From Octopus sinensis (taxonomy: Eukaryota), in contig NC_043021.1 in the NCBI RefSeq assembly GCF_006345805.1, forward strand, positions 21,142,001 to 21,206,000: a stretch of 64,000 nucleotides of DNA, in the 5' to 3' direction. This document shows positions 5,151-54,530 of the stretch, piece by piece (the stretch's first letter is position 1; each line of letters begins with the position of its first letter). A program made the position numbers and the translations under genes. The notes beneath the pieces were generated by a model. The model was not told the DNA's origin. It saw only the letters and a program-made list of their open reading frames with translations, and ran no database searches.

Positions 5151-6082
5151 TATATATATATATATATAAATTCTTTCTGTCACACTCATTTTGCACTTTT
5201 GCAAACTTACCTACCTACCCACCTATCCTTATTCTCTCTCTCATATTCACTTTTTACATCGAAGGTACACCACCATCTCTCTCTCTCTTTCCAGTAGGGA
5301 AGGCCATGTATCTCTATTGCAAGAGGAGATACATTAATCCTGTCTCTCTTTCATACATTTATATCTTTTAGTATTATGCCCCACTCCTTGGGTATAGTAC
5401 TCACTCACTCACTCACTCACTCATGCTGGAACACTGCCCTTGAAGGGTTTTATCAGTTAAAAGGACCCCAGTGATATTTGAAGTGTGGCACTTCTTTTAT
5501 CAGTTCTTTTGCTGAACTGTTAAGTTACAAAGGCATAAACAAATCAACCCTGGTTGTCAAGTTCTGTCAATCACAAAGACATACACACACAAAAACGTAC
5601 ATACATACATATATATATATATACACACACACACACATACAGGTGAAGGCATGGGTGTACAGTTAAAAAGTTTGCTTCACAACCACATGCTTTTGGTTTC
5701 AGTTCCCCCTGAGTGGTACCTTGGGAATGCATCTCCTACTATTGCTCCAGGCTGGCCAATGTGTTGTGAGTGAATTTGGTGAATGGAAACTGAAGTAAGC
5801 CCATTGAATACACACATACATTTCTATATATCTGTGTGTATGTGAATGTACAGGCATGTGCATGTTTTGCTTATCATCATTTGAGCAAAGTAGTACTGAT
5901 ATTGGCATGACCAGTTTGCTCTGTATTTTTGAAAACTTGTGGAATATAAAATATATATACATATCATCATCATCATTTAGCATTCATGGTTCATGCTGGC
6001 TGGGTTGGACAGTTCGACAGGATCCAAGGACAGCACTGTATTTCTGTGTCTGCTTTGGCATGGTTTCTGTGGATAGATGTCC

Positions 6083-6556
6083 ATCCTGATGCCAGGTGCC
6101 CTTCCTGATGCCAGGCACCCTTCCTGATGCCAGGTGCTCTTCCTGATGCCAGGCGCCCTTCCTGATGCCAGGCGCTCTTCCTGATGCCAGGCGCTCTTCC
6201 TGATGCCAGGCGCTCTTCCTGATGCCAGGTGCCCTTCCTGATGCCAGGCGCCCTTCCTGATGCCAGGCGCCCTTCCTTATGCCAGGCGCCCTTCCTGATG
6301 CCAGACGCCCTTCCTGATGCCAGGCGCCCTTCCTGATGCCAGGCGCTCTTCCTGATGCCAGGCGCCCTTCCTGACTCCAGGCGCCTGACGCCAGGTGCCC
6401 TTCCTGATTCCAGGCGTCCTTCCTGACTCCAGGCATCCTTCTGATGCCAGGTGCCCTTCCTGACATTAAGTGCCTTTCCTGACTCCAGGCACCCTTCTTG
6501 ACGCCAGGCACCCTTGCTGATGCCAGGTGCCCTTCCTGACGCCAGGCGCCCTTCCT
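6083..6556. repeat. GC-rich minisatellite, 19-bp unit cttcctgatgccaggcgcc, ~25 copies
   Basis: Directly visible; the 19-aa periodicity of ORF 5984-6610 equals 3 x 19 nt. Confidence 0.95.
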
Positions 6557-6779
6557 ATGTATCCATTTTCTGAAAAGCAGGTAAGAATTGGTAACTGGAA
6601 AGAAGTTCAATCAGTAAAACATTTTCAAAATCAATTTCTGTCTAAGCTATGGAAAAACAGATGTCAAATGAACAATCTGATGTATATCATGCACATGCAC
6701 ACATGAGGGTTTTACTGAATGTAATGCATAAGTGGGCTTCATTGTCTTTATCATCTGACATCATTCAAACTGCTTGTGC

Positions 6780-11342: not shown

Positions 11343-11690
11343 TCTGCCGCTACGTTCTGAGTTCAAATTCCGCTGAGGTCGACTTTGCTTTCATCCTTTC
11401 GGGGTCGATTAAATAAGTACCAGTTACGCACTGGAGTTGATATAATCGACTTAATCCATTTGTCTGTCCTTGTTTGTCCTCTCTGTGTTTAGCCCCTTGT
11501 GGATAGTAAAAAAATAGGTATTTTGTCTGCTGTTATGTTCTGAGTTCAAATTCCACCGAGGTCAACTTTGCTTCCATCCTTTCAGGGTCGATTAAATAAG
11601 TACCAGTTATGCACTGGGGTTGATATAATCGACTTAATCCGTTTGTCCTCTCTGTGTTTAGCCCCTTGTGGATAGTGAAAAAATAGGTAC
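11343..11690 (+). mobile_element. SINE family D, head-to-tail partial dimer
   Basis: Two units containing GAGTTCAAATTCC..GAGGTC.ACTTTGC..CATCCTTTC.GGGTCGAT and ending AAATAGG. Confidence 0.85.
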
Positions 11691-19469: not shown

Positions 19470-19955
19470 TAATAATAATAATGAAATTATTGTATACAGT
19501 GCTCAGGTGCACCACAACTTGTCAGAAAGTGCGTATAAAGTATATGCAGTAATGTACAAATGTCTGGAAAGCAAACAGTGTATGAGTCAGATACATGCTT
19601 GTGTGCGTATGGACGGGAGAAAATCAGGTGTAGTGTTGGCGAATCTCAGAAAGCATGGAAGTTTTGAAGGAGGCAGTGCTCTGACAACTAACAACTGATG
19701 CCGGCAGTTTGTTCCATGCTTCAGCAACTCTCAGCGTGAAAAAATGTTTCCTAAAGTCATGGGAGCTGTGCTGTTTTCTGACTTTGTAAATATGTCCACG
19801 GGTGTTAGACAGGTGGAGTTTGAAAAGGTGCTCAGAGTTATTGTTTGTAAGATGGTTGATAATTTTATGGGTGTCTGCCAAGTCAGCTGCCAGACGTCGG
19901 AGTTTCAACGTGTCCAGGCCCAGGGAAGTAAGGCAGTCAGAATATGGCAAATGCC
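19470..19955 (-). mobile_element. CR1-clade LINE 3' end (ORF2 C-terminus + 3' UTR)
   Basis: LPYSDCLTSLGLDTLKLRRLAADL..NTRGHIYKV..RKHFFTLRVAEAWNKLPASVV..FKT is the typical CR1 C-terminus. Decayed copies at ~23110-23460 and ~52345-52652. Confidence 0.9.
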
Positions 19956-21727
19956 TTATGTAGGCTTTTATTTTGATATGGTGGCTTAGGCTGGACAAGA
20001 CTTACTGAGGCTGTATTCCACAGCTGGGTGCTCTTCCTGTTGCCAGCTCTCACCTGTCTCTAAAAGCAAGGTAATATTTCCTATGGCCAGACATGTTTTT
20101 CACAGAAGACTGGAAAGCATTGCTTGTATGACAGTGACACTCATTTTACAACCATCATGTGATGACTTCAGCTCTCACTCACACACACAACAGGCTTATA
20201 AGATATTGACCAACCCTTGAGGTTATAACAGATACTTGTCAAAGCTGCCACAAGATGGGATGGAACCTGAAATCCCATGGTTGCAAAATAAGCCCCATAA
20301 CTGCACATCCATACCTACACACACACACGCTCTCACTATTTAATTATCTTTGATTGCTGCCTCATACCATCAAACATTCTCTACTCTCCTCACTTATTCC
20401 TGCACTCGGTCCTACCTACTTTATATCTTAAAGGTCCACTCTAACACTTCATCACCAATTTCCAGCTCTACCGTAAAAAGCACCTTCTGTCCGTGGCCGT
20501 TTGCCAGCCCCGTCTGGCACCTGTGCGGGTGGCACATAAAAAGCACCCACTACACTCACGGAGTGGTTGGCGTTAGGAAGGGCATCCAGCCGTAGAAACA
20601 CTGCCAGATCAGACTGGGCCTGGTGCAGCCTTCAGGCTTCCCAGACCCCAGTTGAACCGTCCAACACATGGAAAGCGGACGCTAAATGATGATGATGACC
20701 CCATACAACTGTCTCTTCTAAAACGTGAATAGTTATGTACCTAATCATTCAGTGACAAACCTGTTCTGTTTTGGCTTTCTTCTCTCATAATTGACCTCTC
20801 TCTGTCTACTCCTAGCATAAAGTCCATCTTCCTCACTCAAGATTTCATAGTCTTTCAAGTTACAAGGTAGTCTCACCGGTGTTGCTGGCACAAAAAACGG
20901 CACTTCAGTACATGCTGTAAAGTGGTTGGCATTAGGAAGGGCATCCAGCCATTGAAACCATGCTAAGGCAGAAACTGGAGCATGATGTGCTCCTTGGGCC
21001 CCATCAGATTCTGTCAAAAAATCCCAACCTAATCCAACATGGAATTTGGATGCTAAACGATAATGATGATAATGTTTCTGTGCCATTTGGTGGTAACCAA
21101 AGAACTTGCTTATAGTTTCATTATTTCTGTATTCTCTGCTGTTGATTTGGTTGGTTGTTTGATCTCTTCAAATCCTAAAGTTGTGAAACAATCAGTTTGT
21201 TTCTTTGTTACTTTCATTTTTCTTATTTTTCTTTCATTCTACTTTGTCTGCTTTCTTCCTTTGTTTTCTTTCTTTCCACATTTCCTTTTCTTTTATTTCT
21301 TTTTCTCTTTTCGTTCTTTTCTTATTTTAATCTCTAAGCATCCTTCCCTTCTTCCTTCCTTCCTTCCAAACTTTGTAAATGGGTTTGGACTAAAATACTT
21401 GAAAAGGATTTAAAGCATTAAGTTCTTAACCATTTTCACCATTGCACTAGCTATCTGCCTGCCTGCCTGTCACACACACACACACACCACACACACACAC
21501 ACACACACACCACGACACTCTCTTTCTGTCTCTTTTATTCTTCTTTGGTACCAGTTAAAGTGGACATGAATTAAAAGAAGCAGGATGGCTGGGGAACCTA
21601 CAAATTATGGGAATTTCTTCTTGCTAAAATTCTAATAGGTTTGCCAACAAACTATTAGCTAATGATTTGCTTTTTCCCTCACAGACAAAACAAAAAAAAA
21701 TGAAAATGATTGTTGGTGGTTCACTCA

Positions 21728-24529: not shown

Positions 24530-25650
24530 TGTTTTGGAAGACCAGCAATCTGTAGAGCTCACTGAGGACGTCTTGCAAAGCCTGGTCGAACAAAATCTCA
24601 TCGTAACTGTTGAGGAACTAGCGGAGAATCTTGGATTTGGTCATTCATCTATGCCTGTGTGTCATCAGAAAAGCCAGCAAATTGGGTCAGTGAGTTCTTC
24701 AAAAACTTTCTGAGTCTAATCTCGTGCAGAGAGTGAATATGCACTCTTCTTTGCTGTCGTTTCCCAAATGAACCTTTTTTGGATTGAATAGCGACTGGTG
24801 ATGAGAAATGAGTTCTCTATAAAAATGTCAAGCACCGAAGACAGTGGGTAGGGAAAGGAGAAACACTGGCACCCCAGGCTAAAGAAGGTCTTCACTGATG
24901 TAAGGTGTTGTTAATCTATTTGGTGAGATATGAACTTTTAAACTCAAAATCAAATGATAACAAAGGAGATCTACAGTGAGCCGCTTGAGTGGCTTAACCC
25001 TTTAGTGTTCGAATTATTCTGACAAAATTTATGCTTCTTCATCTACACTGTTTTGAATTAATCATTCATTAATCTTGTAGCTATGAAATTTTGATGAGGT
25101 AGCTGTTAATTTTTAAAATGATATTGTAGGGTTGGTATGAGAGACCATATCTGGCCAGTTTGAACATAAAACATGCAGAATATTTTTGGCCGGATATGGC
25201 CAGTTTAAATGCTAAAGGGTTAAGTCAGTACCAGAAGAAAAAGGACCATCTTTGGTTTTAAGATGAAAGGTGTTCTTCCATCAGGATAATGCTTGGCCAC
25301 ATACAATGAGGATGACATTCCAAAAGCTGGAGCAGTTTGAATGGGAAACAATGCTTCACGCACCATATTTACCAGACATTGCCCAATATGATTATCATTT
25401 ATTTTGCAGTCTTCAAAATCATTTGGACGGAAAAAAATATGAATTCTATGGACGACGTGAGAACAGTGCTGGAGGAGTATTTTCGTTATGGACAAGTGAA
25501 TTTTGGTAGACGGGTCTTGCAAGTCTACCAGATAGATGGAAGAGAAAATGGAGAGTTTATTTTAAATTAAAAAAGAACCTTGTTCATCTTAATTTTGAAA
25601 AATAAAAGAAGTATAAAAAAAAAACACATTATTTATGGGATGACCCAATA
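24530..25650 (+). mobile_element. Decayed mariner transposon (transposase pseudogene + right TIR)
   Basis: HTH TVEELAENLG; catalytic ATGDEK(W)VLYKN; FHQDNAWPH; HAPYLPDIAQYDYHLFCSLQNHL (YSPDLAPSD-like); terminus ..ATTTATGGGATGACCCAATA followed by TA. Confidence 0.9.
24998..25219. mobile_element. TTAA-flanked MITE (piggyBac-like ends) inserted in the mariner ORF
   Basis: TTAA|CCCTTTAG...CTAAAGGG|TTAA (TSD 24994-24997 and 25220-25223); removing it restores the reading EWLKSV. Confidence 0.9.
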
Positions 25651-25892
25651 TATAGTTGAAGTGATGGGAAACAAAAAGACAAAAGGATACAGAAAATAAT
25701 GTAGTTAAACCTTAGTAGCACAGGCGTAGTTGTGTCATAAGACGCCTACTTCCTAACAACACATTTCTGGGTTCAGTCCCACTGGATGGCATGTTGGGCA
25801 AGTGTCTTCTACTGTAGTTTTAAGGCTGACCAAAGCCTTGTGAGTGGATTCTGAGACAGAAATAAGAGCCCATTATATATATATATATATAT

Positions 25893-27030
25893 AAATCAAT
25901 AAATGGTGGGGTTGTGTTGACCGCATGTGGAGAATGATAAGCAAAGAGAAAAATTGTAAAAAGGCAGAATGCTAAATTGAAAGAAAATTTTAATGAAAAT
26001 GGGTGTATGGAAAAATTTTGAAAAATTGATAAACTATACATATATTAATTCAAACTGGTTTTCATAATAATGTGACTTTTCAAGAATTGTAAAGAAAAAA
26101 AATTTTTTTTTAATGTGAGGAGGGGGAAAAAAGAAACTTGTTTTTTGTTTTTTTCAAAAAAATAATAATAATAATAAATATGTACAAAAATTAAAAAATA
26201 GGTACTCCGATACATTGTAAAGTCTTTGTGTATCTTGAATTTAATGACAGTTCACGAAAAAATTACCTTGAAGTATTGAGATCCAATGGGATTAAATCCA
26301 TGTGTTGTTTAATTCAATTAAGAGTGTCTCTTAAGTGGATGGCAAAACAGGAAGTAGTAATAGTCCAGTTCCTGTGTTGTGAATAAGGGGAGACAACTCT
26401 ATGGGTTTTAAGCTCTTCAATTTGTGTTTATCAATTTTTTGTAATAAAGGGTGTTAATAAACCTTAAATATAAAATTATTATTTTAGCTTCATTTGCATT
26501 ATCTTTTTTTATATAATTGTTTGCTGACTTAACATTCAGATTTAACAACACTTTATTTATATTGTTTTTTCTAATTATATAAATTTGCATAAACCAATTT
26601 ATAAATTACATTTCAGATTGTTATTTCATATATAACAACAACAATAATAATAATATAATATAATAATATTAAAGAATATAAGTTTTAGCTTGAAGTGATG
26701 ACTGCATGGTATCCTTATATATTTGTGTTAGTCCATCTGAAGAATGAGGTAGAAAAAGAAGTATGATCAACGAGGAGTTTGCATATTAAGATGGCGTTTT
26801 GATATTTTTCATAAAGGATCTCCTTGTTAATTCTCTCCTGTGTGGTGATTCCGTCTTTACATTGGTAGAAGGGGAATATGTAGAATTTGGATTTTTGTCT
26901 TTAGCGCATGAGTCTATGTGGTCACTCGTGGGATTTGCCGGTATTCCGGGAGATTTTATTTGTCTTTATGCACCGCTTCTCTTTTACGTAACGGAGGCTC
27001 GTTTGTCCAACATAATTATGTTGGTAACCA
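25893..27030 (-). mobile_element. Penelope-like element 3' end (GIY-YIG C-half + 3' UTR), cut by the assembly gap
   Basis: Near-identical to 34094-35455; GYQHNYVGQTS at the gap edge. Confidence 0.88.
26047..26088 (-). ncRNA. Candidate minimal type-I hammerhead ribozyme (U3-A8 variant), copy 1
   Basis: AAUUC-UUGAAAA-GUCAcauuaUUAU-GAAA-AccagU-UU-GAAUU; stem II and loop III carry mutations relative to copy 2. Confidence 0.5.
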
Positions 27031-27130
27031 NNNNNNNNNNNNNNNNNNNNNNNNNNNNNNNNNNNNNNNNNNNNNNNNNNNNNNNNNNNNNNNNNNNNNN
27101 NNNNNNNNNNNNNNNNNNNNNNNNNNNNNN
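27031..27130. other. Assembly gap (100 N)
   Basis: Run of N. Confidence 1.
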
Positions 27131-27422
27131 TGTCTTGCAAGTTACTTGGTGACCCTGCCAGTGCAGGTGCCACTTAGGGCATCAAGCTGTAAAAACCTTG
27201 TCAAAATTGACCTTGCCTGTGCTGGTGCTACGTAAAAAGCACTCAGTCCACTCTGCAGGGTGGTTGGTGTTAGGAAGGGCATCCAGCTGTAAAAACCATG
27301 CCAAAAGAAACACAGAAGTCTGGCCAGCTTCTAATAAACCATCCAACCCATGCCAGCATGGAAGGTGGACGTTAAAGGATGATGATATATATATATACAC
27401 ACACACAACACACACACACACA

Positions 27423-27634
27423 CATGAGATGGTGCTGAAAAGTTCCTGGTTTTGGGTAAAAGAAAATACAGGAGGATGAGTTAACTGTGATTTTGTTCGA
27501 CATATTCCCCTCTCAGATTCACACACTTATTGCGGCAGTTCTTCAGTTTTTCTGTAAAAGAACTCAGAAGATTGTGCTCCCAACCAGGCCTTTCACAATA
27601 CCCTTAAAGCCAGGGACTTTCAGTACCTCCTTAT
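27423..27634. mobile_element. Mariner-derived MITE
   Basis: Imperfect TIRs GGTGCTGAAAAGTTCCTGGTTTT / AAAGCCAGGGACTTTCAGTACC. Confidence 0.7.
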
Positions 27635-27844
27635 ACATGTGTTTATTTTTTTATGACTGTTTTTTTTTCTTGCTAGTATAGGTTAGACAAATGGATTACT
27701 GAGTCATTGAGGATTTCCTTTCTGTTATTAACCCTTGTTTTCCAAAGAAAATATATCTTATTTCTAATATTTTTAAAGGTAGGGGAAAATAACATCAAGG
27801 TTTCTGTCTGTAGCTGATCATTATTTGGAAATGTACAAAAATAA

Positions 27845-27875
<31 letters not shown>

Positions 27876-28584
27876 TGTGTAGACATGGTTGTGTGGTTGA
27901 GAAGTTTGCTTCACAACCTGATGGTTTTGGGTTCAGTCACACCGTGTGGAACCTTCAGTTAGTGTTTTCTGATATAGTCCTGGGACCAAAGCCTTATCGT
28001 ATGATTGGATGGTCGTGCATTGATGCTGATTAAACAGACTTGTGTTCAAGGGGCTGCAGCCCTAGTCATCCTGTTTTTTTTTCTTCTCTCTAGATAAAAT
28101 GCTTCCTCTAGAAATACATCATCCAATGTTTTTCTGTTTTAAGATAGAAATACATGATTTGAGAGACTTGGTTGTTATTTCTGGCAGCTCAAATGAACAC
28201 ACATTGGGTCATGTTTGTGTGTGTATGTGTACAGTGTACATGTGTGTTCATACATATGTGTGTGCGCATGTGTTATGATGAATGTGTGCTTATGTCTTTG
28301 TGAAAATAGAGACCATAACAGCATACGTAATATTATCCCCATTGGGGGGAATTACTTACATGTTAATATGTCATTAATTTTCCCCATTTTCATAAAATTC
28401 AAATATGGTTTATTTCTTATTTTTGTTTTTCAATTTTAATTTTGTAAGTGCTGTATTCTGTTTCTTCATCATTTGATATAAAACACCCCCTGAAGAGATT
28501 TCAAATGGCTTGATTCTGTAAAGCTATTATCTCAAATGCTCTAAACTGTCATAAAATAATTTTTCATCTTCTTCGACTATTGCC

Positions 28585-28617
<33 letters not shown>

Positions 28618-29804
28618 TCTTTTTGCTATAGGCAGAAGGCCTGAAATTGTAGAGTAGGGGCCTAGTCGATTATATCGACTCAACCAGTACTTATTTTATC
28701 AACCCTAAAATGATGAAAGACAAAGTTGACCTCGGTGAATAATGACAATAATAATGGTTTCAAATTTTGGCACAATGCCAGCAATGTGGGGGGGAGGGGG
28801 AAGTGATTACATCTCCCCACATCCCCAACGCTCAAATTGTACTTTGTTTTATCAACTTTGGAATGATGAAAGGCAAAATTGATGTTGGTGACATGAGAAC
28901 TAAGAACATGAAGAGCTGAAAGAAGTATTGCTAAGCCTTCTGTCTGTTTGTCACATTAATGGTTTCAAATTCTGGCACCAGGCCAGCAATTTTCAGTGCG
29001 GTGGTGATGGTGGTGGTGAGCAAGACAATTATGTTATCCCTAATACTTGATTGGTATTTTATCAGCCTCAAGAGGAGGAAAGGCAAAGTTTACCTAGGTA
29101 GGATTTGAACTCAGAACATAGTCAGAAGAAATATCTCAAAACAGTTTCTGATGTGCTAATGATTCTGCCAGCGAGCTGGCAAAAACCTTTATTCAGTTAC
29201 TTCATAATAAAAAGGATAAGGATAATACACAATCAGAAAACCCTGTCTAGCCAAGAAAATATATTACCTTACTTGGAAACAAGTGAGGCCTGACAAGATG
29301 AAGGGCATCTGGCTGTTGAAAATCTGCCTTGACAAATTGTGTCTGATCCATGGAAGCAAGGGAAACTGGGCATTAAATGAAGTTATATATCATCATCATC
29401 ATCGTTTAGCGTCCGCTTTCCATGCTAGCATGGGTTGGACGGTTCAACTGGGGTCTGGGAAGCCAGAAGGCTGCACCAGGCCCAGTGTGATCTGGCAATG
29501 TTTCTACGGCTGGATGCCCTTCCTAACGCCAACAACTACATGAGTGTAGTGGGTGCTTTTTACGTGCCAACGGCACAGGTGCCAGATGAGGCTGGCAAAC
29601 GGCCACAAACGGATGGTGCTTTTTACGTGCCACCGGCACGAGGCCAGTCAGGGCGGCGCTGGCAACGGCCACGTTCGGATGGTTCTCTTACGTTCCACCG
29701 GCACTGGTATCTCAGCTGCAATTTCCATTGATCGATTTCGATTCTGATTCTCACTTGTCTCAACAGGTCTTCACAAGTAGAGTTCTGTGTCACAAGTAGA
29801 GTTT

Positions 29805-29837
<33 letters not shown>

Positions 29838-29893
29838 GCACACATATATATAAATCAAAGTATACAATATTATATATCCATTATAGCCGATTT

Positions 29894-29971
29894 TACCAAC
29901 TGGTTTCACACTATGGGTTCAACAGAGTGTTAGGTAAATCCAATTATGTAACCCTGCACTCATCAGAGGTA
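29894..29971 (-). ncRNA. Candidate type-I hammerhead ribozyme with long stem II (decayed)
   Basis: UACCU-CUGAUGA-GUGCAGGGUU..AACCCAUAGUGU-GAAA-ccag-UU-GGUA. Confidence 0.55.
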
Positions 29972-30559
29972 GCCGTTAGGGAAATATGTATCCCATTGGT
30001 AGGCTGCTGGTATATAATCTTAGTTACTTAAGTGAAGTCTCTTTATTCTGATGGCCAAATGTATAGTGGTTAACACCTCTGTTACTGCTTATAGATGTGG
30101 CATTTGAATCCTTTGGGTGATATTACTTTTTTTCCATTTTTTTTTCTATTATGAATTTATATTAAACAATTTTAATGCTATGAAATCATATTTTACAATA
30201 TATTAACTGAATGGTTTATGTTATAGTAGGTTATTGCAAATAGAAATAGAATTTTAAGTAGTACTACATTTGTATAAGACATGCCGTTTTTTTGTATTTT
30301 TAATTGTATCAAAAAAATTACCTGCCTAACCCTAACCAAAACCCTGATGAGACAGCATTACAGATGGGAGATTGAGCATTGCAGGCTAGGGAGCTAAATG
30401 AGCATAAGTCTGATATGTGCAATAGTTGTTAATAATAGATAAAAGATATTGAAAACAAGCCAAAATATTACTATGTGTTTGTTCAAATGTATGAAACATT
30501 GTTTATGGTACATTGACATATATGTGGGAGCCACATCATCTCATTATACCGTCTTCCTC

Positions 30560-30961
30560 TCTCTTTACTCTTTTACTTGTTTCAGTCATTTGACTGCGGC
30601 CATGCTGGAGCACCACCTTTAGTCGAGCAAATCGACCCCGGGACTTATTCTTTGTAAGCCCAGTACTTATTCTATCGGTCTCTTTTGCCGAACCGCTAAG
30701 TGACGGGGACATAAACACACCAGCATCGGTTGTCAAGCAATGCTAGGGGGACAAACACAGGCACACACACACATACATATATATATATACATATATACGA
30801 CAGGCTTCTTTCAGTTTCCGTCTACCAAATCCACTCACAAGGCATTGGTCGGCCCGGGGCTATAGCAGAAGACACTTGCCCAAGATGCCACGCAGTGGGA
30901 CTGAACCCGGAACCATGTGGTTGGTTAGCAAGCTACTTACCACACAGCCACTCCTGCGCCT
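30560..30961 (-). mobile_element. SINE family A copy
   Basis: Full length, close to consensus. Confidence 0.9.
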
Positions 30962-31448
30962 CTGCATACATAATCAACACCTAATTTGAGTCATTCATTA
31001 TATAATGAATTTGTTGCTTCTGAGAAACTGTGTTTTGTTAATTGTCTAAATTAAAAATTCTAGAAAGATGAAATGAATGTTAAACTTTGATTTACCAGTC
31101 AGCTATTTGCAATGAGTGAATGACAGCAAAATCATTGTGGTGCTGTGACACCCTAGTGGCTGACCATAGTTACATAGAACATCAGAAGCAGAAACACAAG
31201 TTTTCATCTTATATCACAGTTCACTTGAACAAAATATAAACAACTATGCAGTTGAACTATGGTACTAATATATTCTTCAATTTGTTTCAGTCATTTGACT
31301 GCAGCCATGTTGGAACACCACCTTAAGGGGTTTTTTTTTAGGCGAACAAATCAACCCCAGGACTTATTCTTTATAAGCCTAGTACTTATTCTTTTGGTCT
31401 CTTTTGCCAAACTGGGGGGGGGGGACAAACATAGATACAAACACACAA

Positions 31449-31479
<31 letters not shown>

Positions 31480-32119
31480 CATACACACACACACATACAT
31501 GATGGGCTTCTTTCAATTTCCATCTACCAAATCCACTCTCAAGGCTTTGGTCTGCCCAAGGCTATGGTAGAAGACACTTGCCCAAGGTGCAATTAACTCG
31601 GAACCATGTTACCACACAGTCATCAATTTACGGTTTCATCATCATCATCGTTTAGCGTCCGCTTTCCATGCTGGCATGGGTTGGACGGTGCAACTGGGGT
31701 CTGGGAAGCCAGAAGGCTGCACCAGGCCCAGTCTGATCTGGCAGTGTTTCTATGGCTGGATGCCCTTCCTAACGCCAACCCTTATTCAACATTGTCACAT
31801 TATTGTACTTACTTGCACCGAATCATAAATTTTTCACTACAGAAATATTTTATGATGAAACACAAAATTCTTTTCCCTACAAAACATCCTTGTAAAATAG
31901 GGGTGCATCATCTTATGCAAGGGTGCATCTTCTATGATGGCAAATACGATAAATGGTTTTGTAGCAGTGTATATATTGCAATGAACAAGCAGAAACTAAA
32001 ATTTGAACTCAGAACCATGAAGTACTGAAATCATGCAATTCCTTCATTCTTTTTTCATATCAAAACTACTGTTTATAATCTAATAAAATTTTCTCCAGAC
32101 TCAGAGATTTCTGTCATCG

Positions 32120-32815
32120 TGTGTGTGTATATGAGTGAGCAAATGAGGGTGTGTGTGTGTGTATGCATATGCATGTCAGTGTGTAAATATGTATGTACAA
32201 TGTTGTGTGTGTGTGTACGTGTACATACACACAGATAAATATACTTGCATGTCCGTATGTGTATATACATATATAAATATATATGTATATAATTATATAT
32301 GCATGCTTGTATATAAGTATATATGTATGTATATATAAGCGTATATATGTATGTATATATATATATGTGTATATATGTATGTATATATATATATGTGTAT
32401 ATATGTATATATATATATATGTGTATATATGTATGTATATATATATATGTGTATATATGTGTATATATGTATGTATATATATATATGTGTATATATGTAT
32501 ACATATGTATATATATAAGTATATATGTGTACATATAAGTATATATATATAAGTATATATATGTGTGTTTGTGTGTGTATATATATATATATGTATATAT
32601 GTATGTATGTATGTATATATGTATGTATGTATGTATATATGTATGTATGTATGTATATATGTATGTATGTATGTATATATGTATGTATGTATATATGTAA
32701 GTATGTATGTATATATGTAAGTATGTATGTATATATGTATATGTATATATATAAGTATATATATATGTATATATATAAGCATATATGCATGCTTGTACAT
32801 AAGTATGCATTATAT
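32120..32815. repeat. Compound (TA)/(TG)/(TATG) microsatellite field
   Basis: Directly visible; similar fields at ~16680-17130 and ~22860-24290. Confidence 0.9.
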
Positions 32816-34257
32816 ACATTGTGGCATGTCACAATGTATTTTTTGTTTCATGAAAGTGAGAAGAAAACAAAACAAAAATGTAATTGCATCCTGATTAACT
32901 TGGTGACAGTATAAATTGTAGATGGAGCTAAATGGAGGGAGCTTCTGTTCCAATTTGCTCACTTCACATAAATGGAAACCAGACATTAATTCTACAGAGC
33001 CATGTGGTGAAAATTTGTGTGCAGTGAAGTATCGTTGAAAATATCTAAGAGTTAACCACTTAAGTCATAAAATGTCTAAGAACTTCAATTATGAAGTCAA
33101 GACTCTGTATGCTGAGATGTGCTGTGTTGCATCTTCCCTTCTTTGAAAATATATATTCATAAAAGCAACATGTCTATGTACGTAGTGGTGTGTGTTTTCC
33201 TTCTTTGCTTTTATTTTTTTCCTGCATATACCAGATAGTGAAATAATTTTTTTTTGTCTTCAAATTACATACATTTTGAATGAAAACAAAAAAAAGTGAG
33301 TTAATTTTCATAAAGTCTGAAAAATAAAAAGATGAAAATAAATAACTTCTTCGTTGAACTTGTTAAAACTTTAACAACTGATTGGCAGATATAGAAAGAC
33401 CAAAATAAAAAAATTTCAAAAAATAGGTATTAAAAAAAAAACTCACCATATCTAATGATTGAATTCTATTGCAGAAAATTGTTATATAATGATATAACAA
33501 AAAAGAAAAAAAACAAACTCAGGTAAAAAAAAAAATACTTGAAATATGACAATAATGAAAAGTGAAAGCAATCCATTGTAAATGTTATGTTATTTAAAAA
33601 AATGAAAAAATTCTCTCAATGAGGTTTACCTGAATACTATTGGGTAGAAAAACATCTTGAGATTTTCGGGTTGAGGCCCTTCATTTATGATGAATAAAGT
33701 TTGAGAAAAGATTAATGATCATCTCTGCCTTGCGGTAGCAGCTAATGATAGAGCTTGTGCATAAAGTAGATAGATCTGTCTTTGTCAGTTTGACTTGTTT
33801 AGTGAAGGAAGGTACAAGTTTGATCGTGTGGTTAAGAAGATTTGTTCATGGTCCCACATTTCCAGGTTCAACCCCACTACGTGTTACTATAAGTGTTCTT
33901 CTAATATAGCAATTCCTTATGAATGGAATTTGATAGATGGAAACTGTACAGAAGTTTATCATGTGTATATGTATATGTAACGACAAAAATAGAGGTAGAG
34001 AAAATCACATCTTTAATTGTAATTTGATGTATATTAGTGTGTATATATGTTTCTGTGCATGTAGCTGTAAGCAATATATATATATATATATATAAATCAA
34101 TAAATGGTGGGGTTGTGTTGACCGCATGTGGAGAAATGATAAGCAAGGAAAAATTGTAAAAAGGCGGAATGCTAAATTGAAAGAAAATTTTAATGGAAAT
34201 GGGTGTATGGAAAAATTTTTTTGAAAAATTGATAATATATATATATATATATATATT

Positions 34258-34300
34258 AATTCAAACCGGTTTTTCATCATAATGTGACTTTTCAAGAATT
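34258..34300 (-). ncRNA. Candidate minimal type-I hammerhead ribozyme (U3-A8 variant), copy 2
   Basis: AAUUC-UUGAAAA-GUCAcauuaUGAU-GAAA(A)-AccggU-UU-GAAUU, in the sense of the Penelope ORF, with palindromic loop CCGG. Confidence 0.6.
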
Positions 34301-34893
34301 GTAAAGAAAAAAATTTTTTAAAAGTGTGGACGGGGAAAAAGAAAATTACATTGTTTTTTGCAAAAAAATAATAATAAATATATACAAAAATTAAAAAATA
34401 GGTACTCCGATACATTGTAAAGTCTTCGTGTATCTTGAGTTTAATGATAGTTCACGAAAAAATTACCTTGAGGTATTGAGATCCAATGGGATTAAATCCA
34501 TGTTTTGTTTAATTTAACTAAGGGTGTCTCAAAACAAGAAGTAGTAGTAGTCCACTTCCTGTGTTGTGAATAAGGGGAGACAACTCTATGGGTTTTAAGC
34601 TCTTCAATTTGTGTTTATCATTTTTTGTAATAAAGGGTGTTAATAAACCTTAAATTATAAAATTATCATTTTAGCTTCATTTGCATTATTTTTTTTATAT
34701 AATTGTTTGCTAACTTAACATTCAGATTTTAACACTTTATTTATATTGTTTTCTAATTATATAAATTTGCATAAACCAATTCATAATTACATTTCAGATT
34801 GTTATGTCATATATAATAAAAATAATAATAATAATGATATTTAAAGAATATAAGTTTTAGCTTGAAGTGATGACTGCATGGTATCCTTATATA

Positions 34894-35127
34894 CAAGGTG
34901 GTGAGCTGGCAGAAACGTTAGCACGCCGGGCGAAATGCGTAGCCGTATTTCGTCAACCGCTACGTTCTGAGTTCAAATTCCGCCGAGGTCAACTTTGCCT
35001 TTCATCCTTTCGGGGTCGATAAGTTAAGTAGCAGTTACGCACTGAGGTCGATGTAATCGACTTAATCCGTTTGTCTGTCCTTGTTTGTCCTCTCTGTGTT
35101 TAGCCCCTTGTGGGTAGTAAAGAAATA
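34894..35127 (+). mobile_element. SINE family D with 14-bp TSD inside the Penelope 3' UTR
   Basis: TSD ggtatccttatata at 34880-34893 and 35128-35141; the empty site is present in the other Penelope copy (~26708). Confidence 0.95.
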
Positions 35128-37389
35128 GGTATCCTTATATATTTGTGTTAGTCCATCCATGAAGAATGAGGTAGAAAAAAGAAGTATGATCAATGAGGAG
35201 TTTGCATATTAAGATGCGTTTTGAATTTTTCAATAAAGGGATTCTCCTTGTTAATTCTCTCCTGTGTGGTGATTCCGTCTTTACATTGGTAGAAGGGAAT
35301 ATGTAGAATTTGGGATTTTTGTCTTTAGCGCATGAGTCTATGTGGTCACTCAGTGGGATTTGCTGGTATTCCGAGAGATTTATTTGTTATTTATGCACCG
35401 CTACTCTTTTACGTAACGGGAGGCTCGTTTGTACAACATAATTATGTTGGTAACCAGTGCATGTGAGAATGTAGATAAAGTTCTCGGAGGAACAGGAGAA
35501 GTTGGTCTTGATTTTAAACTTCGTTCCTTGTTTGAAGATAAATTCAGAGCCTTCAAGTAGGAAGGGGCAGGTGCCACAGTTTGGGTGTGCACATTTTTTA
35601 ACTGCTGGGGGTGGATGTGGTGTGTGAAGTTTGGCATTTGTCAAGAGTTTTTTTTAAGATTTGTGTTGCCTTTTACATTTGAGGATTTTGTGTGTATTTA
35701 TGTTTTTCATTTTTGGGTCTGTTGACAGTAGACTGAGGTTTTGTATGATTGTTGTGTATGCTTCGATATTTTTGGGGTTGTAGGTAGAAATGTATGGAAG
35801 TATTTTGGGGTTGTGTGTGGTGTTGGGTTGGGTGGTTTTCAGTGTAATGTTGTCTAGTTCTTTGGTGCATTTTATTCCATACTCTATAAGGGTGGAGGGA
35901 TATTGGCATTGTAATAGTGTTTTTTTGAGGTCTTGAAGGCGTATTTCTCGAGTTTTTGGAACCGAGACAATGGTGCATACCCTTTTAGCTAAGTTAAAAG
36001 GGATATTTGTCTTGGTGTGTTTTGGGTGGCATGAACTAAAGAGGAGGTATTGTTGTGAGTCTGTAGGTTTGTGGTAGATGTCTGTTATGATTTGGTTCTT
36101 AGGTGTTTTTATAATTAGGAGATCAAGGAAAGGGAGATGATGTTTGCTTAATTCCATAGTGAATTGGATGTTGGGATGTATGTTGTTCAGTATGGTTTTG
36201 AATTCCAGAAACTTTTCATAAGATTCTTTCCATATGATGAAACAATCATCCAAATACCTTTTCCAGTTTTCCATTAGGTAGGTGTGGAAAACATGTCCAA
36301 ATTTCTGGCGTGATATCTCATAGAGTGATAGTTCGAAGAAACCCATTATGAGGTTTGCAAGGACTGGCGCAAGCCTTGGTACCCATCGCAATACCACATT
36401 TTTGATGGTAGTGTGTGTTGTCGAAGAGGAAATAATTGTTTGTCAGAATGAACTTGAGTGTTCCGTAATAAAGGTCTTGTGAATGCGGTCAGGGAATGTC
36501 TCTGGGTGTTTTTCTAGCCAGAAATCAATTGCCTCAATACCATATTCATGTGGGATGTTGGTGTAGAGGTTGATGACATCAAAGGATACCAGGAGCGCCT
36601 CCTCGTTAACTGTTTTCGGGAGGTGTTTGAGCATGTCCAGATCATCCCTAATGAAACTTTTGATGTGGGTAAGGAAAGGTTTCAAAAGGATGTCTAGGAA
36701 ATTACTCAGGCGGTGATATATATATATAATATATATATATATATAGGTAGATAGGTATGTATAAAGGGGCTCTGTAAAGTGTGACACATAACCAATGATT
36801 GGGTTCAGTGGCTAGTGTAGTATGGCATGTATTTATTGTGGGACACTGATCAGTGGAAGTGCACAATGGCCTAAAATTTCTAAAACCTATGTAATTATTT
36901 CAGAATTTTGATGAAACCTGTATAGCATTAAATACCAAACCTGTTTTCTGCTTATTATGTGTTTGTGTGCATATATTTATGTGTGTATGTATGCAAAATT
37001 CAGGGTTAAGAAGTTTGCCCACTCAATTCAATTATCATGGTCTTGATTTTCATTTAGAGAGTATCCAATAATGATATAAGCCATTTTAGAACAATATTAA
37101 TATATATTTTAACGGCATAGACAAACGTGGAAGGAAAGAGCTCATTACTCTTCAAATGGCCCCCAAGACTGCTGGGAAGAGAGGGAAGGAGGAAGTTATT
37201 CTCCGATGAGAGATCTGGCCTGAATGCTTACAACAGAGTGAATTCTGCTGAAAGTACCTGAGAGTCAGGTGTTATTAAACCAGGTAACAGAATCTAGAGG
37301 GTATTAGATAAAGAAATGAGATTATATGATGCACAACCTATGTCACTGAGGAGCATTATCAATGCACTGAAGGCAGACATGGTAGACTT

Positions 37390-37801
37390 GGTGAGCTGGC
37401 AGAAACGTTAGCACGCCGGGCGAAATGTGTAGCTGTATTTTGTCTGCCGTTATGTTCTGAGTTCAAATTCCACCGAGGTCGACTTTGCCCTTCATCCTTT
37501 CGGGGTCGATAAATTAAGTACCAGTTACGCACTGGGGTCGATGTAATCAACTCAATCCGTTTGCCTGTCCTTGTTTGTCCCTCTCTATGTTTAGCCCCTT
37601 GTGGGCAGTAAAGAAATAAGTATTTCGTCTGCCGCTACGTTCTGAGTTCAAATTCCGCCGAGGTTGACTTTGCCCTTCATCCATTCGGGGTCGATAAATT
37701 AAGTACCAGTTACGCACTGGGGTCGATGTAATCGACTTAATCCGTTTGTCTGTCCTTGTTTGTCCTCTCTGTGTTTAGCCCCTTGTGGGTAGTAAAGAAA
37801 C
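37390..37801 (+). mobile_element. SINE family D dimer with TSD
   Basis: TSD catggtagacttggt at 37378-37392 and 37802-37816; the second unit starts at ~37621. Confidence 0.9.
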
Positions 37802-38656: not shown

Positions 38657-38888
38657 AGGCGGCGAGCTGGCAGAAACGTTAGCACGCCGGGCGAAATGCG
38701 CAGCCGTATTTCATCTGCCATTATGTTCTGGGTTCAAATTCCGCCGAGGTCGAGTTTGCCTTTCATCCTTTTGGGGGTCGATAAATTAAGTACCAGTTAC
38801 GCACTGGGGTTGATGTAATCGACTTAATCCGTTTGTCTGTCCTTGTTTGTCCCCTCTATGTTTAGCCCCTTGTGGGTAGTAAAGAAAT
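38657..38888 (+). mobile_element. SINE family D with 16-bp TSD
   Basis: TSD agatatacatgcacgt at 38641-38656 and 38889-38904; A-box-like AGCTGGCAGAAACG and B box GGTTCAAATTCC. Confidence 0.93.
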
Positions 38889-40194
38889 AGATATACATGC
38901 ACGTGCACACACACACACTGTAGAAGGGGAAAATAATAACTGAGTTTAGAGGTAGGAAGGAAATATTTAAAACCAAGTAAGAATTGTTCAGTGAGAACTC
39001 GGAGAACAGGAATTCACTGATATGGAACTGCTAAGTAGATTCTTCCTAGCCTATGCTTACTTCAGAAATCTAGATATTTCTTCAAAAGTATTGATGATGA
39101 TGATAAAGAAAGATTAGTGCAGTAGTTTCTGTATCATTATGCTGGATAATTTCAATATTGCCAGCGTTATAATGTGAAGGAATATCTCGAAGAAACCAAT
39201 TACATAAAATTGCACTCTTACCAGAATTGTTCTCTTACCATTCAAGTTATTAAGCCCTGTTAAACACTGCATCTCCAATCCATTGGAAAGATTTCTTTCT
39301 GAGATTACGCATTATTGGCATAATCATCATCTTTGTCCTCATTATCATCTGTCTCATTTCTGACATTATTTTTGTGTATCATCATTTATACTATCTTTCC
39401 ATCAAAATCATCACAAATTTAAAAAAAAAAACACAAAATTATATTAAATATTTAATTAAGATTCCCTACTGCCATTAATTTTGATGCATTTCTCTCTTCT
39501 GTCAAGTTGTCTTTCCTTGGTTTGTCTTTATTACCATAATAAGCTCTGCTTTTTAAAGTACCAAATTTTTCCATCTTCACTTATCCTTCATGTTGTCTCT
39601 CACTCCAAAATGAGACAGCCCGAGCTAGACTAGTGTCCTACCTAAATGATGGAAATGTAAGATTTACCTGTCATTAAAATACATCTACCTCTGTAAAATC
39701 TAAAGATTTTTGGCACTGTTCCCATTAAACAATAGAAATCCATACAGATATTAGCTAGAACTAGATCCAAATGTTGAATGTAGCCTTCCCTCATTAAAAG
39801 AGAAAAACCACTTGGTTTTGGGTTGAGTCCCACTGCATAGAATCTTAGACAAGAATCTTCGATAGCCTTGAGTTGGTCAAAGATTTGTGGGTGAATTCAG
39901 TGGACAGAAACCGAAAGAAGCCTGTTGTGTGTTTGATTACATTTGTGAACCATGAAAATTATGAGCTACAAGTGTTGCTGTTAGTTATCATGTCAACAAA
40001 TCATCTGCTAGCTTTATACTCTGAAGATGAGTGAAATAAGAGATCTCTTATTATTTGAAAAACAGGTATGGTTTAGCAACAAGAATGACAACTGGCTGAA
40101 AAACAATGCTTCAATAATATGATATTCATCTAAGCCATGTTAAATTGGAAAAAACAGATATTAAACAAACAAATGATATCTATCTATACACATG

Positions 40195-53664: not shown

Positions 53665-54150
53665 TAGATTAGATTACTTAGATAAGTTTCGGCCGAAGTT
53701 GACTCAGGCCATGTCTAATTTAATAGCACCACCTGGAAGAAATACACAGTCAGCTCTGGGGAACCGTAGCCCATTCAAGCAGAGGGTTATTGTTTCCAAA
53801 GACATATCTGGATGTGGGTGGTTTATCTGGTATTTGTTGGGGGTAATCATCTAGGGATTGTTTGAATGCCGTGAAGTTACTTTTCTCCTTTATGCGTGTC
53901 TGGCATGATGCTGAAGAGAGCAGGGCCATTTGAGGTGAAATAGTTCTGTCATAGTTTTGTGATATGACATGAACATTTCTGTAGTGGATGGATGGCAGGG
54001 GGAAGCCTTGGACAAATTTTAAAGATGGGCATTGTTGATGGAATATTTTCCACATCATACAGATGATATAGAGCTCACAGCGGCAGTGAAGGGAGCAAAG
54101 CCTGAGCTTTTTGAGTCGATCCCAATAGTCAAGGCTTGTCATGTCATCCT
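53665..54150 (-). mobile_element. CR1/L2-group LINE 3' end (third family)
   Basis: LDYWDRLKKLRLCSLHCRCELYIICMMWKI..AFKQSLDDYPQQIPDKP, followed by a short (AATCT)-like tail. Confidence 0.8.
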
Positions 54151-54152
54151 CC

Positions 54153-54530
54153 GCAGACCTCCACCAAGCAGCTCTTTTTAGGATAGATACACAAATAAAA
54201 TTACTAACAGAGAAACGAAAATAAACTTTGGCAACAGCAACACCACCATAGGTTATGTGGAAACGATGAACGTGTTTTCAAGTGAGTTAATCAAAGAATG
54301 TAACATTGTAATACTTCATATAAAGTAAATATAACAAATGAAAAATCCTTCCCAGATCTCTACCAAAATTTCATCATCTGTTCCTTGTGTCATTACCAAC
54401 TTTTCCTGTAAGTTTCATCAAATACCGTTCACAACATTTTGAGCTATTTTACACACAGGCACATAGACAGACAGAGGGACAGACGGACAAACCAATGCCG
54501 ATGAAACCTCCTTCTTTGGTGGAGGTAATA
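54153..54530 (-). mobile_element. Helentron-associated (DINE-1/HINE-like) non-autonomous element; distal end probably at 53045-53087
   Basis: Minus strand begins TTATTACCTCCACCAAAG, has a (GTCT)-rich tract and an inverted subterminal CTTGGTGGAGG; the distal piece ends ..CCTAG|TT. Confidence 0.6.

Follow-up and report, generated by a model that had tools for sequence, protein, structure and literature searches.

U3-A8 hammerhead motifs in a Penelope-like element of Octopus sinensis and paired 3-8 changes among related families

Does the 3' region of a Penelope-like element in Octopus sinensis encode a hammerhead ribozyme in which U3-A8 has taken the place of C3-G8, and does this replacement hold across the element's family? 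The question was raised by a stretch of 64,000 nucleotides (contig NC_043021.1 of assembly GCF_006345805.1, positions 21,142,001 to 21,206,000, hereafter the window) from a microsatellite-rich genome of 2.72 Gb. The original prediction had read such a motif in two Penelope copies, with a UUGAAAA box for the usual CUGANGA. The minus-strand letters agree with this reading: the motifs belong to two copies, 89-94% alike, of the same Penelope-like family and have the orientation of its ORF, and C3>U and G8>A occur together in each. The features of the two copies are as follows.

34258-34300, minus strand: minimal type I hammerhead with U3-A8 core, copy 1; damage: one A too many in the GAAA run, and C11.1>U
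34296-34300, minus strand: stem I of copy 1, 5' strand AAUUC
34289-34295, minus strand: core box of copy 1, U3 U4 G5 A6 A7 A8 A9, with U3 at 34295 and A8 at 34290
34276-34288, minus strand: stem II of copy 1, 4 bp and a 5-nt loop; G10.1-C11.1 in the family, G.U here
34263-34275, minus strand: G12-A13-A14, palindromic helix III (AACCGGUU in the family) and U17 of copy 1
34258-34262, minus strand: stem I of copy 1, 3' strand GAAUU
34072-35189, minus strand: 3' UTR or pseudo-LTR of copy 1; it extends about 190 nt beyond the cut site, to a (TA)n run
35190-36715, minus strand: RT/GIY-YIG frame of copy 1, 5'-truncated and frame-broken
26047-26088, minus strand: hammerhead copy 2, with stem II broken and CCGG>CCAG; predicted dead
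25871-27030, minus strand: Penelope copy 2, end of the endonuclease region and 3' UTR, stopping at the assembly gap 27031-27130

On the minus strand, copy 1 reads AAUUC-UUGAAAA-GUCA(CAUUA)UGAU-GAAAAA-CCGG-UUU-GAAUU (34258-34300) and copy 2 reads AAUUC-UUGAAAA-GUCA(CAUUA)UUAU-GAAAA-CCAG-UUU-GAAUU (26047-26088; U3 at 26083, A8 at 26078). Predicted cut sites are 34263/34262 and 26052/26051, respectively. The private damage originally described for each copy was seen again, together with one lesion that they share, C11.1>U at a CpG, which leaves a G.U at 10.1-11.1. As single strands the window copies folded no better than shuffled sequences (z of +1.9 and +1.6), an uninformative result that is expected of a motif working as a dimer. 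An Rfam scan of the window at gathering score returned no hammerhead, and there was none among the 61 matches at E ≤ 10 over positions 25000-37000. Given this poor folding and the lack of an Rfam match, the case for a hammerhead rests on the family.

Relatives were collected with a 381-nt query, which gave 1,725 candidates genome-wide, of which 40 were scored. By the sequence criteria of PMC8557442, the host is a Penelope-like element of Neptune/Nematis type and appears Neptune-like. This placement follows from the partial tandems, inverted 5'-truncated copies and (TA)n targets of the family, which also has an optional tail, and from its 3' ends, which fall into two classes about 45 nt apart. 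The RT/GIY-YIG frame of copy 1 has 94-96% nucleotide identity to its best-matching relatives, such as those at loci L041 and L059. The L041 protein contains a CX2-5CxxC linker ahead of the endonuclease as well as a DKG motif, which together define the Neptune and Nematis clades (PMC8557442), and its ORF matched RVT_1 (E-value of 9e-8) and, below the curated cut-off, GIY-YIG (E-value of 0.002) in Pfam. Pfam searches with the two ORF fragments of the window and with ORF1 gave no match, although the DNA of the window fragments has 94% identity to that of the L041 type. Rather than a single ORF, the family has an ORF1 of about 497 aa with a Pro/His-rich tail, which overlaps a Met-less RT-EN frame. 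In full-length elements, these overlapping frames were read at the following coordinates.

L043:5673-7172, minus strand
L043:3394-5742, minus strand
L045:5560-7060, minus strand

A U UUU UUA slippery heptamer lies in the overlap at 16 element loci, and the RT-EN frame is likely read by a -1 frameshift; a frameshifted ORF1 is allowed in some Penelope-like clades (PMC8557442, Fig. 1 legend). The hammerhead is situated about 680 nt past the stop codon of the ORF. In the tandem at L045, the UTR with the hammerhead occurs both after the ORF and before ORF1, which is the location of a pseudo-LTR, and the cut site is about 175 nt ahead of the ORF1 ATG.

Several further repeats were observed in the window. 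A dispersed repeat of about 235 nt interrupts the copy 1 UTR at 34899-35132, an insert that copy 2 does not carry, and further copies of it are found at 37389-37800, 38657-38894 and 11343-11689, some of them head-to-head. Positions 6007-6589 hold a 19-nt tandem array with two long minus-strand open frames. Short minus-strand frames at 19624-20001 and 53750-54277 give the impression of C-terminal pieces of LINE reverse transcriptases.

A family-wide non-canonical core had been predicted from the two window copies, and the genome-wide family bears it out. U3 was constant and A8 nearly constant in 34 aligned copies. The scaffold of the window's clade was found in 658 copies with U3 compared to none for the reversed pattern, and 654 of 662 scaffold copies genome-wide have U3-A8. 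The eight exceptions each differ at a single site (four at position 3, four at position 8; controls 0), and C3-G8 does not occur on this scaffold. N7 is A, C or U depending on the subfamily, and loop II differs between subfamilies as well. Sister subfamilies whose UTR similarity is as low as 72-78% have retained the motif, and both stems persist there through double changes, A-U>U-A for stem I and A-U>G-C for stem II. In eight hand-picked rows, 92.7% of the cells pair, and 14 of 500 shuffles scored as high, which is modest support. The family motif is closed by a stem I of 5 bp and has a stem II of 4 bp with G10.1-C11.1; the palindromic helix III AACCGGUU is followed by U17, and both A15.1-U16.1 and an H at position 17 are present. 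Members of the window's clade have no extra nucleotide between A9 and G10.1, and two other U3-A8 families have one more base ahead of the stem II GUC. As foreseen, CUGANGA patterns miss the family motif, and in the window Rfam misses it too.

The youngest sister subfamily, which has intact ORFs of 782 aa, has one U fewer after CCGG (20 of the 52 clade sites examined). This implies that the GAAA run has gained an A or that position 17 is a G. Other hammerheads tolerate an insertion in the GAAA run (PMC3088659) as well as G17 (PMC3884650), and relaxed selection in the intact-ORF subfamily is possible.

We determined how widespread the four 3-8 pairs are with patterns that share a GAAA-(N)-CCGGU tail, none of which includes stem I. 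There were 8,791 U3-A8 matches in the genome compared to 85 for the reversed-pattern control (spacer 11-18), and, with a spacer of 8-18, 1,522 A3-U8 matches compared to 367, 180 C3-G8 matches compared to 52 and 143 G3-C8 matches compared to 62. Together with the 658 to 0 ratio on the clade scaffold, the U3-A8 count contradicts the initial concern about a chance match in the AT-rich context. Among the matches listed, hits form families, many of them just downstream of the end of a Penelope ORF. Two scaffolds were tabulated by eye among the matches listed. The first 100 of 127 matches to scaffold one comprised 80 A3-U8, 15 G3-C8, three A3-C8 and two G3-U8, and the first 100 of 300 matches to scaffold two comprised 59 U3-A8, 34 C3-G8, six C3-A8 and one U3-G8. 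Fisher P values on such tables overstate the association, as the copies are related and the events few. The C3-G8 copies at L143 and L144 have a stem II in common with a U3-A8 family.

The stems of these motifs are also maintained. Across 15 distinct A3-U8 or G3-C8 motifs, whose 3-8 state was set by the search patterns and whose stem I was not, 90.4% of the cells pair compared to 70.3% in shuffled rows (0 of 500 as high), and double changes were found at seven of nine pairs, including all five stem I pairs. A stem I of at least 3 bp was present in 79.5% of 171 distinct sites and in 17.1% when the arms were shuffled. The motif follows the ORF in at least five lineages of elements, with stems that are different but self-consistent; for some of these lineages, protein identity to the window's clade is no more than about 50-60%. 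We also considered whether non-canonical cores had replaced canonical ones genome-wide, which was ruled out by 3,979 matches to CTGANGAG..CGAAAC compared to 394. Since canonical hammerheads with other stems III are common, the non-canonical excess is limited to the CCGG class.

A phylogenetic tree was built from 30 hand-picked copies out of 66 that were linked to an ORF, all from this genome; the rows left out include duplicates, misaligned pieces and a mislinked nested copy (second motif at L056). An A3-U8 family joins the U3-A8 clade of the window (98/99). Two further U3-A8 families fall elsewhere, as does a mixed clade of A3-U8 and G3-C8 copies (100/100). Given the starred branches, the U3-A8 label must have changed at least twice and the G3-C8 label at least once. 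The tree is unrooted and gives no direction for these switches, and it contains no C3-G8 families, which have no ORF nearby. On shared scaffolds, positions 3 and 8 vary in concert, and at least three switches are needed to explain the element tree.

Positions 3 and 8 pair in the cleaving conformation of the hammerhead, as seen in the full-length crystal structure. Mutant data support this role: C3G and G8C each kill a Penelope hammerhead, and the double mutant partly rescues it (PMC11167929). The paired changes in the octopus families suggest that selection keeps the catalytic fold.

Several other hammerhead-bearing elements were found in the genome. An element of 355-360 nt forms inverted-plus-tandem arrays at (TA)n sites (L150:3570-4870, and at L148, L151 and L193-L196), with one hammerhead per unit and no Penelope ORF found beside the arrays. 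Its C3-G8, U3-A8 and C3-A8 subfamilies are 84-97% alike, and its C3-A8 lineage occupies at least four loci, two of which are tandem pairs; this spread of a mismatched core counts against selection on the catalytic fold. It resembles the non-LTR retrozymes (PMC7229834; bioRxiv 10.64898/2026.07.22.740005) in having tandem units with a type I hammerhead each and no ORF nearby; this retrozyme-like element is a related family, distinct from that of the window. At L153:2820-4010 (minus strand), three tandem units of about 577 nt each carry an A3-U8 hammerhead with G17, and relatives of these units have A or U at position 17. A frequent U3-A8 family at L156:5663-5720 (plus strand), L095, L100 and L107 has a perfect stem I of 6 bp and two extra bases between stem II and GAAA, and lies about 1.9 kb past the ORF end.

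The motif was modelled as a monomer and as a dimer. The intact motif at L059 folds as a monomer at -3.6 kcal/mol with no hammerhead, and the minimum-energy fold of its homodimer has the double-hammerhead topology at -19.5 kcal/mol (strict model -16.9). For copy 1, the double-hammerhead model reaches -12.5 kcal/mol versus -17.7 for a different best fold, and for copy 2 it is at +8.2. In several families, the dimer minimum-energy fold is likewise not the double hammerhead, so dimer folding is only supportive. An A3-U8 family (L138 and L063) has a stem II of just 2 bp with a 4-nt loop, and its dimer minimum-energy fold is exactly the double-hammerhead model, at -15.3 kcal/mol.

Our preferred reading, in which we place considerable confidence, is that the Penelope-like pseudo-LTR carries a minimal type I hammerhead whose clade has U3-A8 for C3-G8, that intact members likely cut themselves slowly as double hammerheads, and that both window copies have decayed and are predicted to be inactive. 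The self-complementary AACCGGUU would hold two motifs together, one RNA being cut after U17 by the core and stem II of its partner. Cuts at both pseudo-LTRs of a tandem transcript would free a unit-length RNA, which may be ligated into a circle, as circularisation has been proposed (PMC4209133). The element's protein may help folding, for which there is precedent in an anole element, where cleavage by the Penelope hammerhead requires it (PMC11167929). As the motif is built for dimerisation through its palindrome, a monomer assay would probably be negative even if the motif is active. In such a dimer, one RNA would contribute the core and the other the cut site, so an intact partner could still cut in trans a copy whose 3-8 pair is broken. 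Such trans complementation would let lineages cross the mismatched states between U3-A8 and A3-U8, which are two transversions apart, and would explain the spread of the C3-A8 lineage.

It is conceivable, though in our judgement unlikely, that a once active hammerhead has become a passenger, either across the window's clade or, at a minimum, in the youngest subfamily there, and that the elements spread without cutting. The junction of GAAA and the cut site is altered in the very subfamily whose 782-aa ORFs are intact, Naiad elements do well although they lack canonical hammerheads (PMC8557442), and in the anole element hammerhead mutants leave in vitro insertion unimpaired, with no RNA reads ending at the cut in the accessible part of that report (PMC11167929). 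Genomic footprints of cleavage are also missing: the 5' ends of copies were considered as marks of the cut site and dropped, as one of 32 breakpoints fell within 3 nt of it while 1.1 were expected. Against a passenger, double changes in stems I and II arose within the window's clade, the core survived about 25% UTR divergence, and the two possible alterations of the junction are those tolerated elsewhere. Less probable still, and by our estimate very unlikely, is that the fold is kept for protein binding or for RNA-RNA pairing through the palindrome. The palindrome is the most constant part of the motif, albeit by design of the search, the predicted stability stems from dimerisation, and such motifs have low rates in vitro (PMC4209133). 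However, the covariation concerns positions 3 and 8, whose tertiary pairing belongs to the cleaving conformation, U4, G5, A6, A9 and GAAA are unchanged around them, and a binding site would be unlikely to accept all four pairs yet shun mismatches.

In favour of a chance resemblance in AT-rich repeat sequence, multiplied by copy number, the UTR is very AT-rich, the window copies fold worse than shuffles and have no Rfam match, and transposition by itself yields high counts. This explanation has difficulty with the self-consistent stems of at least five element lineages that have the motif 3' of the ORF, and with stem I, which was outside the search pattern and yet was far more frequent than with shuffled arms. 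It is largely refuted by the stem I shuffles and the pairing test on 15 motifs, and we give it almost no weight.

How does the octopus motif compare to known systems? U3-A8 was already published for Penelope hammerheads, in Cercyon of S. mansoni with about 1,300 hits (Cervera and de la Pena 2014, PMC4209133), so that part of the finding is not new, and the window motif adds one more case to a variant already in the literature. Cercyon and the octopus element have a minimal type I pseudo-LTR motif and a dimer design in common, and the supplement row S. mansoni(4) shows a UUGAAAA core with U17, as in the window's clade (PMC4209133). Unlike the Schistosoma motif, that of the octopus has a 4-bp stem II, a longer palindrome (AACCGGUU) and no extra base between A9 and G10.1; this extra nucleotide is common in published metazoan motifs and not obligatory, and U17 is common in published motifs as well. 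A3-U8 and G3-C8 come from related octopus families and did not appear in the accessible part of PMC4209133. Short palindromic stems III and dimer cleavage are likewise described for the Penelope hammerheads of Drosophila, rotifer, shrimp and mosquito (PMC4209133), and the dimer-cleaving variants of Lunse, Weinberg and Breaker, as reviewed in PMC6765202, share the palindromic stem III and the link to Penelope. In these small-helix-III hammerheads, the 3-8 pair is canonical where it is readable (PMC4209133, PMC6765202), unlike in the octopus families.

The Poseidon element PAc of Anolis carolinensis (Frangieh et al. 2024, PMC11167929) also has a hammerhead at the junction of pseudo-LTR and ORF, two 3' end classes that make a tail, and AT-rich targets. 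PAc has C3-G8 and a single ORF, whereas in the octopus element about 175 nt separate the motif from a following ORF1, which overlaps RT-EN. The expectation that U3-A8 is a tolerated natural variant agrees with published examples, including a U3-A8 hammerhead that is active in vitro (PMC3088659). In these, Perreault et al. 2011 described covariation from C3-G8 to U3-A8, as here; they give few U3-A8 examples, compared to thousands of copies and two more pair types in the octopus (PMC3088659). In the literature searched, G3-C8 occurs only as an engineered variant (for instance in PMC11167929 and PMC3884650). The literature searched, which also included PMC8495972, PMC6155905 and PMC6962438, contained no report of natural A3-U8 or G3-C8 families, nor of octopus or cephalopod hammerheads of either type; the variants of Lunse et al., which lie outside it, may show them. 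As far as we searched, four natural 3-8 pairs with repeated switches are new, and this novelty is uncertain.

A broader proposal is more tentative, and we hold it to be somewhat less than an even bet. U3-A8, A3-U8, G3-C8 and C3-G8 may each be fixed in separate Penelope families of this genome with repeated switches between them, A3-U8 and G3-C8 being unreported as natural families. The double transversions may have been crossed by trans complementation of dimers through the shared ACCGGU palindrome, which could also shelter mismatched 'cheater' lineages, and about ten thousand ribozymes may have been missed by CUGANGA searches.

Penelope hammerheads cleave poorly in vitro, proved dispensable for insertion in the single element that has been reconstituted, and have been regarded as potential parasites of their host elements (PMC4209133, PMC8557442, PMC11167929). 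The set of four pairs bears on whether these hammerheads function, and the recurrent paired changes at 3 and 8 speak, by comparison among families, for selection on the catalytic fold. The octopus families supply matched natural sequence pairs for kinetic tests. Surveys based on CUGANGA descriptors count too few ribozymes, and may record elements in error as having no hammerhead.
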